In this document: one piece after another, positions 78-5,849 of the stretch | Layout: each line of letters opens with the position of its first letter | How positions within the stretch are numbered: position 1 is the first letter of the stretch | Source of the DNA: Escherichia coli | GTDB lineage: Bacteria > Pseudomonadota > Gammaproteobacteria > Enterobacterales > Enterobacteriaceae | DNA: 5,879 nt | Assembly: GCF_003334815.1 (NCBI RefSeq) | Contig: NZ_QOWO01000072.1 | Reading direction: 5' to 3' (one strand) | Notes under the pieces: model-generated | What the model saw: the letters and a program-made list of their open reading frames with translations, nothing else | Database searches by the model: none | What the model was told of the DNA's origin: nothing | Made by a program: the position numbers and the translations under genes

Positions 78-248
78 GGTTTGGCGTTTCCCTGCCAATA
101 TTTGATAGCCAACCCAGAGGATATAAACGCTAATACCTGCACTTAGAAGAGATAACATATCTTGGCCTAATTGACTTTGAAGTGGTTTGGTCATCTCTTC
201 GATTTTACTAACAACTTCGCTATTAAACTTTTCAAAGAAACCAGACAT
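51..248 (-). CDS. 65-aa membrane ORF resembling the N-terminal segment of VirB6/TrbL-family proteins (possibly a truncated gene)
   Basis: ATG at 248 preceded by AGGTGA, 4 nt after the stop of the upstream lipoprotein gene. MSGFF... then one hydrophobic helix (LSLLSAGISVYILWVGYQIL) followed by AGKR, the usual start of VirB6-type proteins, but it stops at TAA 51-53 where canonical proteins continue for about 250 aa. Confidence 0.4.
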   Translation of the reverse strand: MSGFFEKFNSEVVSKIEEMTKPLQSQLGQDMLSLLSAGISVYILWVGYQILAGKRQTGVPWAFLR

Positions 249-252
249 GTTA

Positions 253-516
253 TCACCTGTTCAATCCATGTTGCTTATCATATTCAGCTGACTCAGCCTT
301 AAGTATTTCAAGCATAGGCCCATAGGTTCTACCAATAATTCCGGCAACTTTTTTAACATTTTGACAATTAACAGAGTCTTCCCCTGACTTTTTACACTCC
401 TTATATTTCTCCGTTGCTTCTTTGGGATGATTTAGCCACCAATCTGATGATTTTGTATCTTCACCACATGCGGAAAGAATAAAAATAGATATCAAGAGTG
501 TACAAATTTTTTTCAT
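253..516 (-). CDS. Small secreted lipoprotein (87 aa); position immediately upstream of a VirB6/TrbL-like ORF suggests a TrbK/entry-exclusion-like role
   Basis: N-terminal signal peptide MKKICTLLISIFILSAC with lipobox L-S-A-C; GAGGA Shine-Dalgarno 7 nt upstream of the ATG at 516; stop TGA at 253-255. Confidence 0.6.
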   Translation of the reverse strand: MKKICTLLISIFILSACGEDTKSSDWWLNHPKEATEKYKECKKSGEDSVNCQNVKKVAGIIGRTYGPMLEILKAESAEYDKQHGLNR

Positions 517-536
517 CTTTGATTCCTCGTATGGAC

Positions 537-578
537 ATTACAATTGCTGATGCAATCAGCAATTGTAATTTTTGTCAA
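537..578 (-). promoter_or_regulatory. Perfect palindrome (15-bp arms, 3-bp spacer) plus adjacent minus-strand TTGACA; candidate operator/promoter for the lipoprotein operon
   Basis: ATTACAATTGCTGAT-gca-ATCAGCAATTGTAAT at 537-569, 21 nt upstream of the ATG at 516. Minus-strand hexamer TTGACA at 578..573 immediately upstream. No clean -10 hexamer identified. Confidence 0.4.
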
Positions 579-617
579 CTAAAAAAAACACCTATTGCAT
601 TATGCTATTTTTTGCAA

Positions 618-902
618 TTAATCCGCTTCAAATCCAAAACGAATCTCTTTTATGTTCAAAAGCAATCTCAATAAGATCATCGGTCTTAACGATGAAGCTG
701 AAGCACAACTTAATTTAGCTCTTGCATTAAATAACTGCCCCTGAACTGTTCCCGGTGTTGTATTTCTAAAATAAGCTATTTCATCAATAGTAAATCCTAT
801 GCTGTATAAAATGGTCACGCTCTTTTCCGCATCGATTAATCCTTCATCGTCGTAAAAGATTTGATGAAGTTGAGAAATGCGTATAGCATCATGCTTAGTC
901 AT
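618..902 (-). CDS. Small helix-turn-helix DNA-binding protein (sigma-70 region-4 / KorA-like HTH)
   Basis: 94-aa ORF; AGAGG Shine-Dalgarno 6 nt upstream of the ATG at 902. Segment FTIDEIAYFRNTTPGTVQGQLFNARAKL fits the T-x-G-T-V HTH pattern. Lies 76 nt downstream of repA on the same strand. Confidence 0.5.
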   Translation of the reverse strand: MTKHDAIRISQLHQIFYDDEGLIDAEKSVTILYSIGFTIDEIAYFRNTTPGTVQGQLFNARAKLSCASASSLRPMILLRLLLNIKEIRFGFEAD

Positions 903-978
903 AATAACCTCTAGCCAGGTTGTTGTGATTAGCGGTTTGTCAGAGTTGCAACCTCTGGCAAATCGCGCCGATTAAATA

Positions 979-1728
979 TCAATTTTTTATAATCTTTGAT
1001 TGCTCATCTTTTTGAAACCAGAATTCAAGACGAACGACTTTTTTGCCTCTTTTTAATGGCTTCCACTGGATTATCCAATTATCTTTTTCGGTCAACTCTT
1101 TTACGGCAGGTTCTATCACCCTTTCTCTGAGTAATCCAAAGGTTTTTTTATAACTTTCAGGAGATTCCATTGCGTGATGAAAATCATCCAGCGATATAGA
1201 TAACCATCCGTTATTGTCTTTGTGGGTATTCATTTGCTCGAATAATTCAAGCAACCGCCATGAGTGAACAGAGCGCAGTCCGCAAGCCTGAGATAGCTGG
1301 TATTTAGTGAAATTTTCTTCCAGTTCGCATAGATAGGGGGTGACCTGTGGTGTGAAGCTCAAAACAACGTGCGCTTCACCTTCATTGTATTTATAAGCAC
1401 CTAACCATCTGATTTTCCAGACATCAACATCTGTTTCGCTTACTTCGTTTATTCTGAAGCTAATGTAGCGGTTAAAAAAATTGTCAGCAGCGATTTTTAA
1501 TTGTGAATACGCTTGTTTTAAAGGCATTCCAAATGTATTGGCGTATTCTTCAGCCGTGATTTTAATCGGGGTGTACTGTCCGCCCATTTTGGCTATTGCA
1601 GCAAAAATGATGCGTTTTTCAGCCAGTGACAGGCTTTGCGCTGCTCTCGTAATGGCATTGCTCATCACGATATTTTTCCCGCGCAGGTTCAAGGTCATGG
1701 TAATGGATTCAGTTTTTTTCCCTTTCAT
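979..1728 (-). CDS. repA: Rep_3-family iteron-binding replication initiator RepA
   Basis: Architecture matches pSC101/R6K-type initiators as remembered: NAITRAAQSLSLAEKRIIFAAIA (winged-helix 1), WKIRWLGAYKY...PYLCEL, SISLDDFHHAM...LEFWF. Preferred start is ATG 1728 (MKGKK, preceded by AGGCGGAGAG); the track ORF extends to 1782 and internal ATGs at 1698 and 1665 are alternatives. Stop TGA 979-981. Cognate iterons lie 130 bp upstream. Confidence 0.85.
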   Translation of the reverse strand: MKGKKTESITMTLNLRGKNIVMSNAITRAAQSLSLAEKRIIFAAIAKMGGQYTPIKITAEEYANTFGMPLKQAYSQLKIAADNFFNRYISFRINEVSETDVDVWKIRWLGAYKYNEGEAHVVLSFTPQVTPYLCELEENFTKYQLSQACGLRSVHSWRLLELFEQMNTHKDNNGWLSISLDDFHHAMESPESYKKTFGLLRERVIEPAVKELTEKDNWIIQWKPLKRGKKVVRLEFWFQKDEQSKIIKN

Positions 1729-1761
1729 CTCTCCGCCTAAATAGGTCAACTGGCACTTGGA

Positions 1762-1845
1762 AAAGTAACAGGTATCGGGCAACTGTAACGAAGATAAACG
1801 ATGTTATCGCACAAGTAAAGTAACATTGCTTGTTGCTGTTACTTT
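1762..1845 (-). promoter_or_regulatory. repA promoter/operator region with inverted iteron half-sites (candidate autoregulatory operator)
   Basis: Iteron core GTTACTTT occurs as AAAGTAAC at 1762-1769 and 1817-1824 and as GTTACTTT at 1838-1845. The pair 1817-1824 / 1838-1845 forms an inverted repeat with 13-bp spacer between the iterons and the repA start. Confidence 0.45.
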
Positions 1846-1849
1846 TGCC

Positions 1850-1858
1850 TGTGGATAT
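1850..1858. promoter_or_regulatory. DnaA box-like site (8/9 match)
   Basis: TGTGGATAT, reverse complement ATATCCACA versus consensus TTATCCACA; directly abuts the iteron array. Confidence 0.35.
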
Positions 1859-1860
1859 TG

Positions 1861-1944
1861 CCCGAAAAAAGTTACTTTTAACCCGAAAAAAGTTACTTTT
1901 AACCCGAAAAAAGTTACTTTTAACCCGAAAAAAGTTACTTTTAA
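1861..1944. repeat. Four tandem perfect 21-bp iterons (CCCGAAAAAAGTTACTTTTAA)
   Basis: Unit starts at 1861, 1882, 1903 and 1924; all four copies identical, contiguous, no spacers; located upstream of a Rep_3 initiator gene. Confidence 0.9.
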
Positions 1945-2040
1945 CGCTGTAACTTGATGATTCAAAAGAATTTCTAGCGACTAAAAAGGTTTTAAAAAAA
2001 AAGATAAAAAGGATTTAAAAAGGAATTTACCCCCAAAATC
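1945..2040. other. AT-rich, A-tract-phased region of the origin (candidate DNA unwinding/bending element)
   Basis: Strongly AT-rich by inspection; AAAAAGG recurs at 1983-1989, 2006-2012 and 2017-2023; flanked by iterons on one side and a perfect DnaA box on the other. Confidence 0.4.
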
Positions 2041-2049
2041 TGTGGATAA
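2041..2049. promoter_or_regulatory. DnaA box (perfect 9-mer)
   Basis: TGTGGATAA is the reverse complement of TTATCCACA; sits at the edge of the AT-rich origin region. Confidence 0.5.
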
Positions 2050-2156
2050 CTCTGCTTAAACCAAGAGGACAGATCACGTTACGTTAAGACAACAAACCTA
2101 ATAAACGACGCGCTCATTTTTTAACCGCTACGCGTAAGTGCTCAAATCAATACCTG

Positions 2157-2222
2157 CTCTCTTCCGCTTCCTCGCCCACTCGCTCACTAACGTTCGGTCG
2201 CTGGGGCTGCGGCGAGCGGTGC
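2157..2222. other. Segment resembling the ColE1/pBR322 primosome assembly (n'-type pas/ssi) region
   Basis: CTCTTCCGCTTCCTCGCCCACTCGCTCACTAACGTTCGGTCGCTGGGGCTGCGGCGAGCGGT is recognisably similar, from memory, to the pBR322 stretch CTCTTCCGCTTCCTCGCTCACTGACTCGCTGCGCTCGGTCGTTCGGCTGCGGCGAGCGGT. Lies about 110 bp from the oriV DnaA box in a GC-rich ORF-poor island. Confidence 0.3.
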
Positions 2223-2589
2223 CACCTCCCGCATGTTGTCGGTTATTCCGTTGCTGTACTGTTCGGAAATTCGTTCTGTGAGCCATCCAGAACACCAGAA
2301 CTCGATTTTCTGGTCCCGGTAATGGTATCCCACGTCTTAGCCCTTAAAACGCGCTCAGAAACTCTCTGAGGCGCTAAAATGCCAACAGATGCCCGTCAGG
2401 GCATGGAAGGTGCGAAAAACGCTTACAGAGGGTTTCAGGAGGCCAAGCGCGCCGATACCCCTAACCAGGGGCTTTCAGGTCGCTAAGAACCGCGTCAGCC
2501 CCCTGCAAAGCAAAAATTGCACGAAACAGGCAGCCACTCGGTTGGCAGGTGGTCGTAGACCGTCGATGTTGCAGCGATGATTGTATTAA

Positions 2590-2934
2590 TCATCTAATGC
2601 TATGGTTGGTGACTTCTTTTTCCAGAGCCTTATTAACAAAAGCATTCAACGATAAATCTTCTTCCATCGCCATTTCTGCTACCCGACGATGCAGTTCTGG
2701 ATCAAGCCTGACGTTAAACACGCCTTTAAACGGGATATCAGGTTCCTTTCCATCCTCCACACAAGACTGTAAATACAGATCAACCGATGTTTTAAACTCC
2801 TGTTCCAGTTCAGCTAATGTAGAAGCCTCATAAGTTACCAGGTCCCGAATAAACGCCAGTTTTCCATACAGGACATTATTTTCAAAATCGGGTTCAACTG
2901 TACCTAAATATCCTTTATATTTTAAATGTTTCAT
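2590..2934 (-). CDS. hicB: HicB-family antitoxin (N-terminal HicB fold plus C-terminal ribbon-helix-helix DNA-binding domain)
   Basis: 114 aa; C-terminal FNVRLDPELHRRVAEMAMEEDLSLNAFVNKALEKEV is a typical RHH segment of HicB antitoxins. Start ATG 2934 overlaps the hicA stop (ATGA at 2931-2934); stop TGA 2590-2592. Confidence 0.8.
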   Translation of the reverse strand: MKHLKYKGYLGTVEPDFENNVLYGKLAFIRDLVTYEASTLAELEQEFKTSVDLYLQSCVEDGKEPDIPFKGVFNVRLDPELHRRVAEMAMEEDLSLNAFVNKALEKEVTNHSIR

Positions 2935-3179
2935 AATAATCCGGCCTCTTTCAGATTCTGTTTAATCGCTTTCAGCGTACCACCTTTAATATAACTTTCC
3001 GGATGTGGGCGATGCATTAATATGGTGTGGTTGATATCAGCATTGAAAAACCGCACTCTTGACCCCTGCATTTCTTTTTTGACATATCCCAAAGAGGAAA
3101 ACAAAACGACCAGTTCATCCCATTCAAACGTTTTTTTGCTGTTTAAAAACTTCGCCAGTAGTTTATCTGTTTTTCCCAT
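2931..3179 (-). CDS. hicA: HicA-family toxin (mRNA interferase)
   Basis: 82 aa; GSRVRFFNADINHTILMHRPHPESYIKGGTLKAIKQNLKEAGLL resembles the E. coli HicA core (GSNH...PRHP...LRKAILKQLGL, remembered). GGGGAG Shine-Dalgarno 3 nt upstream of the ATG at 3179; toxin-first order typical of hicAB. Confidence 0.75.
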   Translation of the reverse strand: MGKTDKLLAKFLNSKKTFEWDELVVLFSSLGYVKKEMQGSRVRFFNADINHTILMHRPHPESYIKGGTLKAIKQNLKEAGLL

Positions 3180-3193
3180 ACGCTCCCCTTGTT

Positions 3194-3229
3194 TGTAACT
3201 AATTATAGTTACAGTGTTGTTTTTGTCAA
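3194..3229 (-). promoter_or_regulatory. Consensus sigma70 promoter for hicAB with overlapping palindromic operator
   Basis: Minus strand: -35 TTGACA (3229..3224), 16-bp spacer, -10 TATAAT (3207..3202), about 23 nt upstream of the hicA ATG. Palindrome TGTAACT-aattat-AGTTACA (3194-3213) overlaps the -10. Confidence 0.55.
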
Positions 3230-3320
3230 ACGTGCCCTCAATGGAACATTTGAGCAGAAACTAAAGCTTGGAGACTCCCAAAATTAGAGAGGAATTACTT
3301 AAAGGCTGCAAAGAACCAAT

Positions 3321-3368
3321 GCAGGATAGACAATCCGATGTCAAATGGTACCATTCGATATCGGATTG
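3321..3368 (-). other. Candidate oriT: near-perfect 38-bp palindrome followed on the minus strand by a TATCCTG|C nick-like motif
   Basis: CAATCCGAT-gtca-AATGGTACCATT-cgat-ATCGGATTG at 3331-3368. On the minus strand the motif TATCCTGC (3328..3321) follows 2 nt after the repeat and fits the MOB_P-type nick consensus YATCCTG|Y. Lies in the divergent intergenic region next to a MobC-like gene. Confidence 0.35.
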
Positions 3369-3419
3369 TCCAAAAACAGGGTTTTTGCCTGTGCCTGCCG
3401 CAGGCTCTATGGAGTGAAG

Positions 3420-3923
3420 ATGAAACAGATAAAATTCAGACTTAGTGGTGATGAGTTAAAACTTGCAGAACATAACGCGATTTCAAGTGGATTTTCCAGT
3501 ATCAATACATTTGCCAGACATAATGTGCTTAACATTGAAACTAAGCCTGTTAATATCCCAGTTAATAATGAACCAGCAAAGCTGGTATCAGTGCGCCTTT
3601 ACCCTCATGAAATAGAACTTGTTAAACGTAATGCTGCCCTTCACGGCATGAGCATGAGCAGAGAAATTGCTATTCGTGTGCGTCAGTCTTTGTTAAAGAA
3701 TGAAGTCTGTCTTTACCCTGATGAAGTTAAGGAACTTAAAAAACTATCAACTGCTGTAGATCGTGTTGGTCGCAACATTCATTTTATCATAAAAGGTGAA
3801 AGATTCTGCACGGTTAACGATCCAGATTTCAGAAAAGACGTTATTGAAGTGATTGAACTGTGTAAGCAAATTGATTCAAAACTTGAAACGTTAACCAAGA
3901 GTGTTGTTAACAGATTTGGTTAA
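3420..3923 (+). CDS. MobC-like relaxosome accessory protein (tandem ribbon-helix-helix segments)
   Basis: 167 aa from ATG 3420, with GGAG 7 nt upstream; the track ORF start at 3345 lies inside the palindrome and is rejected. Two RHH-like segments (IKFRLSGDELKLAEHNAISSGF; KLVSVRLYPHEIELVKRNAALHGMSMSREIAIRV) and C-terminal LKKLSTAVDRVGRNIHFIIKG resembling the MobC L..L...R.G.N motif. Stop TAA 3921-3923. Confidence 0.45.
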   Translation: MKQIKFRLSGDELKLAEHNAISSGFSSINTFARHNVLNIETKPVNIPVNNEPAKLVSVRLYPHEIELVKRNAALHGMSMSREIAIRVRQSLLKNEVCLYPDEVKELKKLSTAVDRVGRNIHFIIKGERFCTVNDPDFRKDVIEVIELCKQIDSKLETLTKSVVNRFG

Positions 3924-3929
3924 AATCAA

Positions 3930-3948
3930 GGCCATCAAATAGATGGCC
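3930..3948 (-). terminator. Hairpin between convergent genes; likely intrinsic terminator for the minus-strand VirB5-like operon
   Basis: GGCCATC-aaata-GATGGCC (7-bp stem, 5-nt loop). On the minus strand it is followed by TTGATTTTA (U-rich); on the plus strand the downstream tract is not U-rich. Confidence 0.4.
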
Positions 3949-3955
3949 CTAGCTG

Positions 3956-4258
3956 TTATCTCATCGTAAATCGCATTACGATTAATAACAGAAGTAAAAT
4001 ACAAAACAGCTTCAACGTAAAAAGGAGTCTTTCTTTTATACCACCGCTGGGAACAAACCTCTTTTCAATTCTATCAGTGATAAATTGCAATGTGCCATAA
4101 TACATAAAAGCATTAACCAGCTTTAACGTAAGCTCCATACTTAAAACAATAACTATTATTGGTAGAGATATTAACAGTGGCGGCGGTGTAGAACCGGTAC
4201 TATTCAATCTAGACCAATGATTATCTACCCATTCTTTTAGCTTATTTAGCTTTATCAT
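3956..4258 (-). CDS. Small integral membrane protein (100 aa, two hydrophobic helices); entry-exclusion-like by position after the VirB5-like gene
   Basis: ATG at 4258 lies 1 nt after the VirB5-like stop (TGAtATG); the track ORF's longer N-terminus overlaps the upstream gene. Hydrophobic stretches PLLISLPIIVIVLSMELTL and LLFTLKLFCILLLLLIVMRF. No family recognised. Confidence 0.45.
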   Translation of the reverse strand: MIKLNKLKEWVDNHWSRLNSTGSTPPPLLISLPIIVIVLSMELTLKLVNAFMYYGTLQFITDRIEKRFVPSGGIKERLLFTLKLFCILLLLLIVMRFTMR

Positions 4259-4259
4259 A

Positions 4260-4973
4260 TCATTCGAAACTCGGTATTTTGGCATTTTTCTGACGTAAAC
4301 GATACTCTGCATACTTTTGTTCTTTCAACATTTCCGCATCAGCCCTGTTTTTACTATCCCATACATCATACTGCATTTTAATTGCCTGTATTTTTAACGA
4401 CTGAGCCTGTAATGCGTTAGCTAAATCCTGGGATTCCTTCATATCCTTTGAAGACTCAATTCGGCTACTTAAACTCTGAATCTGAGACATTGCACTTGAT
4501 AGCTGCTTATTTATCTCATTTCCCTGTTCAATGCTGGCGGCCGTTGAAACTATTCTGGCCTTACAAAGGTTATCAGAACTTTCAATGCCTGTATTACACA
4601 TATCAAACGCTCCATACTTACTGAACAGATTTTTAGCCTGGCTGCTTAATGCACCTTCGGGATTACTGGTAAAATCAGAAATATAACTGTTCCCCTGCTT
4701 ATAAATGTTTGCCAACTCTGATTGCAGGTTACTTAGTTCATTTGTGAATGCCGCAATATTCCTTATACCTGTTGCCGTGGCTAACTGGTCTTTATATGCC
4801 TGAATCTGACTTTGATAATGCCGCGCTGTTTCAGACCATTGTTTGAGTCGTTCTGTCCATCTTGTGGCTTCAATGGCCCATTCCGGACTGGCATCAATAG
4901 CAACCGGAATACCTGCGACAGAACCAAATGAAAATAAGCACAAAAGTACTGAAAAAATTAGTTTTTTGTTCAT
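4260..4973 (-). CDS. VirB5/TrbJ-family type IV secretion minor pilus protein
   Basis: 237 aa; signal peptide MNKKLIFSVLLCLFSFGSVAG, then GIPVAID and a Gln-rich coiled-coil stretch (QSQIQAYKDQLATATGIR) as in VirB5/TrbJ proteins. Strong GAGGAG Shine-Dalgarno; start overlaps the upstream gene's stop (ATGA at 4970-4973). Confidence 0.7.
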   Translation of the reverse strand: MNKKLIFSVLLCLFSFGSVAGIPVAIDASPEWAIEATRWTERLKQWSETARHYQSQIQAYKDQLATATGIRNIAAFTNELSNLQSELANIYKQGNSYISDFTSNPEGALSSQAKNLFSKYGAFDMCNTGIESSDNLCKARIVSTAASIEQGNEINKQLSSAMSQIQSLSSRIESSKDMKESQDLANALQAQSLKIQAIKMQYDVWDSKNRADAEMLKEQKYAEYRLRQKNAKIPSFE

Positions 4974-5710
4974 GCTGAACTCCTCGCACGTGCTTTTTCC
5001 AGGGATGCTCGTCTTCTTGCTTCCATTCCCAATGCGCCTGTTGAAGCCCGTTTCTGCTCCACTTTTTCACCTGCCCATTCGGCGGCTGTTTGCGTTCCCC
5101 GTTTCATTTGGTTTCTCGTTTTCTCTACGGCCATCCCAGCAGCCCCAATCCCTAAAAGAGCCATTCCCTGAAGAGTACCTTCGACACCTGCACCAGCAAG
5201 CTGCTGCGCGAAACTCGATGATTTCCAGACAAAGACAGCAATCAGAACTCCAATTACAAATGCCATTGCGCCCATTGTTAAAATATTTGTTGAGTTAGCA
5301 TCTCTCGATATCTGACTAAGCATATCAGTTTGAAACTCAGTACCAATTTTGACGAGAACTCCTGCAAAAATAACAGTAAATACACTAGAAAATAATATAC
5401 CAAGCCAGTTATTAAACATTACTCTGGTGAATCCAAACATATGACAACCGATAAATATCGGAGCTACAAGAATAGCTAACTGCATTGTTACATCGGCAAG
5501 CATGTAAATAACAGCCGCTACAGACATAATCAGGATGCTTCCTCCCCAAACCAACATTGAACCGATCCCACCCTCAACTGACACATATTTGGATTGATCC
5601 ATAGCATAAACTTTGTCTGCCAAAAGCTGAGTTGTACTCCACATGGTATCTAGCGTTGCCCATACAGGTTTACCAAGGAACCCATCCTTCATAGATTTAA
5701 TAGCATCCAT
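4970..5710 (-). CDS. VirB6/TrbL-family polytopic inner-membrane protein, lacking the canonical N-terminal segment (possibly N-terminally truncated)
   Basis: 246 aa with 4-5 hydrophobic helices and a charged C-terminal tail. APIFIGCHMFGFTRVMFNNWLGILF matches the conserved VirB6 P-x-F-I...TR..F..W block (remembered from Brucella/Agrobacterium VirB6). The frame is open upstream to TGA 5861-5863 with no ATG/GTG/TTG before ATG 5710, and the ribosome-binding site is weak. Confidence 0.7.
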   Translation of the reverse strand: MDAIKSMKDGFLGKPVWATLDTMWSTTQLLADKVYAMDQSKYVSVEGGIGSMLVWGGSILIMSVAAVIYMLADVTMQLAILVAPIFIGCHMFGFTRVMFNNWLGILFSSVFTVIFAGVLVKIGTEFQTDMLSQISRDANSTNILTMGAMAFVIGVLIAVFVWKSSSFAQQLAGAGVEGTLQGMALLGIGAAGMAVEKTRNQMKRGTQTAAEWAGEKVEQKRASTGALGMEARRRASLEKARARSSA

Positions 5711-5802
5711 TGCTGCCGTCAGATAGCCATCAGCATTGCTTACGAATGTTAAAATAATGGCAAATTTTGATAGGTCCCAAACGAGATCTTGTAATGGGGT
5801 TT

Positions 5803-5839
5803 GGGGCTCCGTGGGAATTTCTGCGATAACACCCGCTAA
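5803..5839. repeat. Right copy of the imperfect 37-bp inverted repeat (partner at 41-77); an inverted, degenerate copy of the 3' end of the 51..248 ORF
   Basis: Plus 5758-5829 translates to WQILIGPKRDLVMGFGAPWEFLR-stop, versus YQILAGKRQTGVPWAFLR-stop at the C-terminus of the 51..248 ORF (encoded on the opposite strand). Nucleotide identity is 34/37 in the core. Confidence 0.7.
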
Positions 5840-5849
5840 GCGATTTCTC

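Follow-up and report, generated by a model that had tools for sequence, protein, structure and literature searches.

At oriS of plasmid F, the initiator RepE binds four 8-mers of consensus TTTTTA(G/T)A as single-stranded DNA (PMC4081077, PMC10602881). Both RepE and TrfA bind to just one of the two strands of the unwinding element, all repeats of which are needed, and one RepE molecule can engage an iteron duplex together with an 8-mer in single-stranded form, as formulated in the loop-back model (PMC4081077, PMC10602881, PMC10797057). In pPS10 of Pseudomonas savastanoi, RepA acts as a repressor when dimers occupy the operator and as an initiator when monomers occupy four iterons, and handcuffing restrains re-initiation (PMC4857107). 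Here we report on a 5879-base stretch of Escherichia coli DNA (the window), in which repA, a gene for an initiator of the Rep_3 family, and an array of 21-bp iterons form a compact module of about 1.07 kb at positions 979–2050.

We estimate a probability of about 0.88 that this module serves a small theta-replicating plasmid as its basic replicon, combining a Rep_3 initiator with two winged helices and its cognate iteron origin. We infer this replication function from sequence, and the plan of the module appears to be that of F oriS/RepE and pPS10 oriV/RepA. The window corresponds to the contig of a small plasmid, as positions 78–5804 are circularly collinear with complete plasmids of 5718–5720 bp from Salmonella enterica (LR792480.1) and E. 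coli ETEC6335 (NZ_CP122591.1) at 98.6–100% identity, and the module lies well within this collinear part. The module is rare, being present in 3 of 5426 complete E. coli genomes.

Layout of the module and comparison with described replicons

The features of the module and of its immediate flank are as follows.

979–1728, minus strand: repA, Rep_3 initiator of 249 amino acids with two winged-helix domains (WH1 and WH2), start codon ATG 1728
1731–1738, minus strand: putative Shine-Dalgarno-like sequence AGGCGGAG read from the sequence 5' of ATG 1728
1761–1779, minus strand: full-length degenerate inverted iteron CCCGAtacctGTTACTTTT, candidate operator or roadblock between the candidate promoter and the start codon
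1791–1819, minus strand: best candidate repA promoter, -35 TTTACT (1819–1814), 17-bp spacer, -10 TATCTT (1796–1791), 8/12 matches in a relaxed scan
1817–1845, no strand assigned: perfect 9-bp inverted repeat of the iteron half-site, AAAGTAACA - 11 bp - TGTTACTTT, candidate operator for RepA dimers
1850–1858, minus strand: second DnaA box ATATCCACA (8/9, 1 mismatch), abutting iteron 1 on the repA side
1861–1944, plus strand: four contiguous identical 21-bp iterons CCCGAAAAAAGTTACTTTTAA, two helical turns each
1950–1962, minus strand: weak putative site resembling that of integration host factor (IHF), AATCATCAAGTTA, 1 mismatch, in the spacer between the unwinding element and the iterons
1980–2021, minus strand: candidate DNA-unwinding element, 15% GC, period-11 repeat, with four T-rich 8-mers on the repA-sense strand, TTTTTAAA (2021–2014), TTTTTATC (2010–2003), TTTTTAAA (1998–1991) and TTTTTAGT (1987–1980)
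2041–2049, minus strand: consensus DnaA box TTATCCACA (9/9, 0 mismatches), once in the window, at the outer edge of the module
2053–2227, no strand assigned: origin-flanking segment common to IncX1 plasmids, outside the module, candidate accessory element

The original prediction, made from the sequence alone, had placed a DnaA box, an AT-rich region, iterons, a DnaA-like box, inverted half-sites and repA in this order. Every element was found where it had been placed, and the order is kept with near-invariant spacing in close relatives and more loosely in distant ones. The sequence traits by which an iteron-type theta replicon is recognised are all present, namely tandem direct repeats of about 17–22 bp beside a rep gene, an AT-rich element with internal repeats, one or more DnaA boxes and inverted partial iterons.

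Read from the F plasmid record, oriS comprises two DnaA boxes, GGGG, two copies of TTTTTATA and two of TTTTTAGA on the repE-sense strand, about 45 bp of spacer and four iterons, followed by an inverted-repeat operator of iteron half-sites and then repE, in the same order, strand and orientation as the module. The two initiators, both of the Rep_3 family, are of similar length (RepE, 251 amino acids; RepA, 249) and align over 228 amino acids with 23% identity (E = 4e-16). Several details set the two origins apart. The F iterons (core TGTGACAAAT) lie 20–31 bp apart by our reading of the sequence, whereas those of the module are contiguous 21-mers of unrelated sequence. F carries its DnaA boxes as a tandem pair on one side of the iterons, whereas the module has one box on each side, and the 8-mers are regularly phased in the module (11/12/11) but not in F (15/9/14). 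Finally, F has a second iteron cluster, incC, while no such cluster was found in the window, where every copy of the iteron core AAAGTAAC lies within 180 bp.

The pPS10 oriV/RepA system resembles the module in having four identical contiguous iterons, which we take to be 22 bp long. The dimer of pPS10 RepA-WH1 (1HKQ) is also the best solved-structure match to RepA, a distant one that covers WH1 only. The R6K/IncX initiator pi (pir) and the RepB-type initiator of IncX1 plasmids belong to Rep_3 as RepA does, and the latter shares 24% identity with RepA over 163 amino acids. IncX1 origins contain six 22-bp iterons (TGCGTACCCATCCACCTTTCAG), unrelated in sequence to those of the module, and a GATC-rich AT region. 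We therefore rejected an IncX (pir/pi, gamma-ori) replicon, given this distant initiator, the unrelated iterons and a common segment limited to the DnaA-box flank.

repA, origin elements and their conservation

The longest open reading frame at repA, 979–1782 on the minus strand, encodes 267 amino acids. Within it, the Pfam profile Rep3_N (PF01051, WH1) covers residues 38–181 (E = 3.4e-32) and Rep3_C (PF21205, WH2) covers residues 197–254 (E = 3.1e-15), the N-terminal profile preceding the C-terminal one as in Rep_3 proteins. This profile search had been named in advance as the test that could overturn the Rep_3 assignment, which stands. The 249-residue product is identical to RefSeq WP_000676688.1 (750 bp). 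The fold was taken from the profiles and from sequence matches in the PDB, where pPS10 RepA-WH1 ranks best (1HKQ, 1.3e-14), followed by F RepE over its full length (1REP, 7.6e-13; other RepE structures at about 1e-13) and, more distantly, R6K pi (2NRA, 6e-5). The best NCBIfam profile is that of Acinetobacter RepM (repM_Acin, NF038290; E = 7e-42), with a score of 143.8 bits that remains below the curated cutoff of 250; the RepE equivalog NF010305 scored 73.6 bits against a cutoff of 342. Since neither curated cutoff was reached, RepA is best placed in a subfamily separate from both RepE and Acinetobacter RepM, and probably works like RepE without being an F-type RepE.

The prediction had left the start codon ambiguous with a preference for ATG 1728, and comparison with relatives settles in favor of this codon. 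It is the start in the 750-bp RefSeq annotation. The Providencia relatives have a 10-bp insertion that disrupts the frame upstream of the ATG, and an in-frame TAG directly before this ATG; in pISHS7_4, whose Rep is 82% identical to RepA, an in-frame TGA lies two codons 5' of the ATG. TTG 1782 was thus excluded because of the frame-breaking indel and the in-frame stops. Furthermore, the sequence upstream of ATG 1728 diverges freely among relatives while the codons after it are conserved, and the Providencia sequence has AGGTGA, 4 nt before the ATG, at the position homologous to the Shine-Dalgarno-like sequence. ATG 1665 corresponds in alignment to the start codon annotated for the Pelobacter and Burkholderia homologues. 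As initiation there would cut about two residues off the WH1 profile match, we retain it as a possible minor internal start.

The four iterons begin 133 bp upstream of ATG 1728. That they are identical and contiguous, as predicted, was borne out by Tandem Repeats Finder, which reported 1861–1945 with a period of 21, 4.0 copies and 100% matches. The core AAAGTAAC occurs seven times in the 5.9-kb window, always within 1762–1941 (expected, 0.32; none of 200 shuffles reached seven), comprising the four iterons, one half-site in the same orientation (1838–1845) and two inverted half-sites (1762–1769 and 1817–1824).

We observed that these repeats have changed far less than their surroundings. Against Providencia, none of 84 iteron positions differs, compared to 52 of 238 in the other non-coding DNA (Fisher P = 4.6e-8). 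The corresponding iteron counts are 1/84 for pTR_1_133 (P = 1.5e-8) and 4/84 for pISHS7_4 (P = 7.5e-6), with the other non-coding module DNA differing by 22–26% across these three comparisons. The four pISHS7_4 changes are the same C-to-G substitution in every copy (GTAAC to GTAAG), and the inverted iteron copy in the repA leader of that plasmid carries it as well. By sequence, this is concerted evolution of putative binding sites, iterons and operator copies alike, in the pISHS7_4 lineage. The perfect identity of the repeats had been ascribed to recent homogenisation or strong selection, and these comparisons provide evidence of both. repA itself differs from its Providencia counterpart at 58 of 741 nucleotides, the proteins remaining 98.4% identical, and both the gene and the iterons appear to be under strong purifying selection.

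Downstream of the iterons, the predicted inverted half-sites of the repA leader are present as the repeat at 1817–1845, whose arms (1817–1825 and 1837–1845, with an 11-bp gap) overlap the candidate -35 element. In contrast, the site at 1762–1769, also described as a half-site, belongs to a full-length inverted iteron at 1761–1779, which is 79% complementary to each iteron over 19 nt with a diverged center. This inverted iteron is kept in Providencia at 16 of 19 positions, and its pISHS7_4 counterpart carries the CTTAC core of that lineage. A promoter can also be read at the homologous site in both relatives (Providencia, TTTACT-17-TATTTT; pISHS7_4, TTTACT-16-TATGAT, 9/12). The position of the inverted iteron just downstream of the predicted transcription start, together with the overlap of the -35 element, would fit autorepression. 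By analogy with pPS10 RepA (PMC4857107), RepA dimers may repress at the 1817–1845 repeat.

The boxes at 2041–2049 and 1850–1858, called as DnaA sites in the prediction and matching the consensus at 9/9 and 8/9 positions, are the sole matches with at most one mismatch in the whole window and lie on the same strand. The outer box is invariant in an alignment of relatives and marks both the end of the homology with the Providencia plasmids and the start of the homology with the IncX1 origin flank. The inner box keeps its core TATCCACA at the same place in relatives L002, L004, L005 and L006, with an exact TTATCCACA in L005 and L006, and DnaA-like boxes are also found 3' of the iterons in L008, L013 and L017. 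The case for these boxes as DnaA sites thus appears to rest on their bracketing of the iterons and on their conservation.

Between the outer box and the iterons, GC content drops to 15% at 1980–2019. The region had been described as AT-rich with three phased A-tracts; it is AT-rich and its tracts are phased, but they amount to four T-rich 8-mers that match the unwinding-element repeats of F oriS. On the minus strand, the TTTTTA motifs of these 8-mers (TTTTTAnn) start at 2021, 2010, 1998 and 1987, at intervals of 11, 12 and 11 bp. The outer DnaA box is 28 bp from the first TTTTTA, and the last TTTTTA is 46 bp from the first iteron core. Single-strand folding of the element was no more structured than that of shuffled sequences. 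IHF-like sites with one mismatch occur at chance level in the window (9 vs 12 expected); by sequence reading, relatives L006 (AATCAACAAATTG) and L008 (TATCAACACTTTA) have an exact IHF consensus at the same spacer position as the weak site at 1950–1962. An Rfam search also returned microRNA matches in the window, one of them on the iterons, which we dismissed as artefacts of palindromes and repeats.

Comparison with Providencia delimits the module. In p4kb (3997 bp) and p2939_90_4 (7475 bp), two plasmids of Providencia alcalifaciens, homology with the window is confined to positions 988–2050, at 89% identity. This span, which opens three codons ahead of the repA stop and closes one base beyond the DnaA box, probably marks the natural boundaries of the module. 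The other genes of p4kb encode a RelE/antidote toxin-antitoxin pair, a DDP1-like protein and a methyltransferase-like fragment. As none of these offers a Rep, the module appears to be the only replicon candidate of p4kb, which amounts to a natural deletion mapping though not to proof. The whole Rep_3 module is present twice in p2939_90_4, which resembles a partial dimer or cointegrate of p4kb-like units.

A tblastn search of Rep against 72,556 plasmids returned 3065 records with a related Rep, of which Acinetobacter plasmids form the largest group, while the close clade (at least 65% Rep identity) is a handful of Enterobacterales plasmids. Upstream regions were read for relatives at 88, 82, 65, 53–50, 51, 45 and 42% Rep identity, namely pTR_1_133, pISHS7_4, a 4.4-kb Klebsiella plasmid, Neisseria lactamica pNL18.2, Pelobacter pPRO2, Ralstonia pRSI13, a Burkholderia ubonensis plasmid and Komagataeibacter pGE3. 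Nearly all share, in this order, a DnaA box, three or four TTTTTA motifs about 11 bp apart, a spacer, about four iterons of 20–21 bp, a second DnaA-like box, inverted copies of their own iteron core and rep, and the same architecture was found in nine relatives down to about 45% Rep identity.

The conserved spacings and cores are informative in this set. The 28-bp and 46-bp distances are identical in five Enterobacterales members (the window, L002, L004, L005 and L006), and the last TTTTTA lies 48–50 bp from the first iteron core in the Pelobacter, Ralstonia and Burkholderia relatives. These three and Neisseria have three or four TTTTTA repeats, more loosely spaced in Neisseria, and the T5 tracts persist in GC-rich hosts. 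Operator cores covary with iteron cores across lineages, the inverted promoter sites carrying in each case the lineage's own core (GTAAC, GTAAG, TGGGTC, ATGAAAC, ATGTGCC, GGGACA or TGCGTCA). In pGE3, boxes, iterons and inverted copies are kept and there is no exact TTTTTA repeat. The layout was not found in the 560 bp examined of E. coli relative L016 (40% Rep identity).

Proposed mechanism and rival explanations

The mechanism proposed here combines the anatomy observed in the sequence with a biochemistry carried over by homology. RepA monomers would bind the four iterons, all on one face of the DNA given two helical turns per iteron, and host DnaA would bind the two boxes that bracket the origin. 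The 15%-GC element at 1980–2021 would then melt, exposing a T-rich strand with four TTTTTAnn 8-mers, one per iteron. Iteron-bound RepA could loop back over the spacer of about 35 bp and capture this strand, possibly with IHF or HU, after which DnaB would be loaded. As for control, RepA dimers bound at the 1817–1845 half-sites and at the inverted iteron 1761–1779, astride the weak repA promoter, would repress repA, and iteron-bound RepA may pair sister plasmids (handcuffing) and thereby limit copy number.

We tentatively go one step further, with the odds somewhat against us, and suggest that the TTTTTAnn 8-mers are sequence-specific single-strand sites of this Rep clade, about one per iteron-bound monomer, and that the carriers form an untyped incompatibility group of IncX-parasitising taxA/oriT plasmids. 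The basis for the single-strand sites is the distance of 28 bp to the DnaA box and of 46–50 bp to the first iteron, from Enterobacterales to Pelobacter, Ralstonia and Burkholderia. If this were true, the clade would be a broad natural test set for loop-back origin opening.

Several observations weigh against a complete and conventional iteron replicon at 979–2050. Two DnaA boxes with at most one mismatch are what chance would give in this window (shuffle mean, 1.66), and a consensus IHF site was not found in the origin. A standard scan for promoters and terminators over 900–2400 found no sigma-70 promoter of at least 9/12 between the iterons and repA, the promoter proposed here scoring 8/12 only. 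One 8-mer per iteron is not universal, as the Ralstonia and Burkholderia relatives have three 8-mers with four or five iterons. A literature search with the iteron sequence and the plasmid names found no paper on the replicon, the sole hit being a Providencia genome paper in which the replicon is not discussed. Finally, the segment 2132–2579 is common to Col(MG828) plasmids of about 1.5 kb, which leaves a small chance that it contributes to replication.

This last point raises the question of whether the module is the whole story or is helped by cis elements, or by a second origin, just outside it at 2053–2227 and 2132–2579, which we consider unlikely. The segment 2040–2227 shows 78% identity (76–78% for 2053–2227) to the one that adjoins rep, iterons and DnaA boxes in the IncX1 plasmid p663Rt_52k_tetX, and this flank is kept beside the origin in pISHS7_4. 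Within it, a 63-bp GC-rich core (2159–2221, cttccgcttcctcgc...gcggcgagcggt) matches at least 5000 plasmid records and is 98% identical to a ColE1-like plasmid (L010), where it lies 291 bp past rop, between rop and ori. That position is presumably the one of the PriA-dependent primosome assembly site of pBR322, and the core may be such a site or another accessory priming element rather than part of the minimal module. However, p4kb and pTR_1_133 carry the Rep_3 module without the flank, which is therefore dispensable. Folding of 2140–2240 as a single strand was no more stable than that of shuffles (z = +0.5 and +1.3), which leaves the argument for a hairpin-based priming site unsupported. Rfam revealed no replication-control RNA and no RNAI in the window, a weak negative as a Rop-encoding ColE1-like control gave none either. 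Because this control failed, ColE1 was compared by direct BLAST, and a ColE1-type RNA-primed replicon was rejected, the match to the Rop-encoding plasmid being limited to 63 bp with no RNAII or ori homology. As for 2132–2579, this non-coding-looking segment is 77–87% identical to about 390 bp of Col(MG828) plasmids of 1.4–1.55 kb in which no rep gene can be recognised (for example pG-EA11 of E. coli O104:H4); we found no account in the literature on Col(MG828)/pKL1 of how these 1.5-kb plasmids replicate. RefSeq calls a hypothetical protein of 35 amino acids within it, at 2378–2485.

Far less probable is an inactive relic, the plasmid persisting by integration into an IncX helper or by dependence on it. 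The whole 5.7-kb plasmid does occur integrated in the IncX plasmid pOkiPb01695_3 and encodes only fragments of a type IV secretion system. However, it is also recorded as closed circles of 5718–5720 bp in Salmonella and in two E. coli strains, strong purifying selection acts on an intact repA, the iterons are invariant, and p4kb has no other replicon candidate. A partition (centromere) or purely regulatory array, to which we give the least credence, would likewise place tandem repeats 5' of an autoregulated gene, as is typical of par sites. Yet the adjoining protein is a Rep_3 protein and not ParB or ParR, the repeats are flanked by a 15%-GC unwinding element and DnaA boxes, the layout is that of F oriS element for element, and no partition ATPase is encoded in the window. 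Taken together, the comparisons support a well-formed, selectively maintained Rep_3 iteron replicon of an ordinary and well-understood kind. It is apparently new, undescribed and untyped as a member of that very well-known kind.

Iteron/Rep_3 replicons being textbook material, the module carries little weight as a discovery. Since PLSDB/MOB-suite assign no replicon type to its carriers, typing schemes overlook a small group of Enterobacterales plasmids, which travel alongside those of IncX type. The comparative set, with covarying iterons and operators and unwinding repeats at fixed spacing, offers a way of testing the RepE/TrfA loop-back model in plasmids other than F and RK2. Furthermore, the 1.07-kb module is a candidate vector origin, presumably compatible with ColE1, p15A, pSC101 and IncX origins.

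The carrier plasmid and its surroundings

Besides repA, the plasmid encodes TaxA/DDP1 (NF041451, E = 4e-69), VirB5-like and VirB6-like proteins, an EexN lipoprotein, a LuxR-type helix-turn-helix protein and HicAB. Those of IncX type are taxA/ddp1, eex, actX-like and pilX5/6-like genes. We found on the plasmid no relaxase and no full type IV secretion system, the latter being represented by fragments. The genes for TaxA/DDP1, the VirB5-like and VirB6-like proteins, EexN and the LuxR-type regulator are assigned to 253–902 and 3420–5710. In IncX plasmids, ddp1 is taxA, a relaxosome accessory gene located beside oriT (PMC3332091). DDP1-like genes also occur on pISHS7_4 and p4kb, and the integrated copy in the 38.8-kb conjugative pOkiPb01695_3 (L018, 27688–33913) lies between two copies of taxA/ddp1. 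These plasmids resemble satellites of IncX plasmids, with a Rep_3 replicon that differs from the IncX one and is presumably compatible with it. As this replicon is distinct from pir/gamma-ori, a satellite bearing taxA and a candidate oriT can presumably co-reside with an IncX helper and be moved by it.

A near-perfect palindrome of 42 nt (38/42) at 3329–3370, a candidate for oriT, lies just upstream of taxA/ddp1 and recurs beside taxA in the IncX cointegrate. The carrier plasmids are classed as non-mobilizable in PLSDB. The neighboring 33 bp at 3303–3335 are common to the 1.5-kb Col(MG828) plasmids.

An intact hicA-hicB toxin-antitoxin pair occupies 2590–3179 on the minus strand, hicA being an uninterrupted open reading frame of 82 amino acids that is annotated as frameshifted in ETEC6335. 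On the other side of the module, 897–969 (plus strand) gives a clean though sub-threshold match to the antisense RNA SymR (44.2 bits vs a gathering score of 61; E = 2e-7 to 4e-6) with two hairpins. It starts 3 nt inside a minus-strand helix-turn-helix gene (ATG 902–900), which is the geometry of symR/symE, and the target protein is not SymE-like.

The contig ends, 1–82 and 5798–5879, are absent from the reference plasmid and correspond to outward-facing ends of a Tn3-family transposon, with 38-bp inverted repeats at 40–77 and 5803–5840 (GGGG...CGCTAAG, 35/38 matching) and a 5-bp target duplication, ggttt, at 78–82 and 5798–5802. The insertion splits a TrbL/VirB6-like gene, and the contig breaks within the repeat. 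The same transposon end is present in another plasmid, where it is followed by resolvase and Tn3-transposase fragments.

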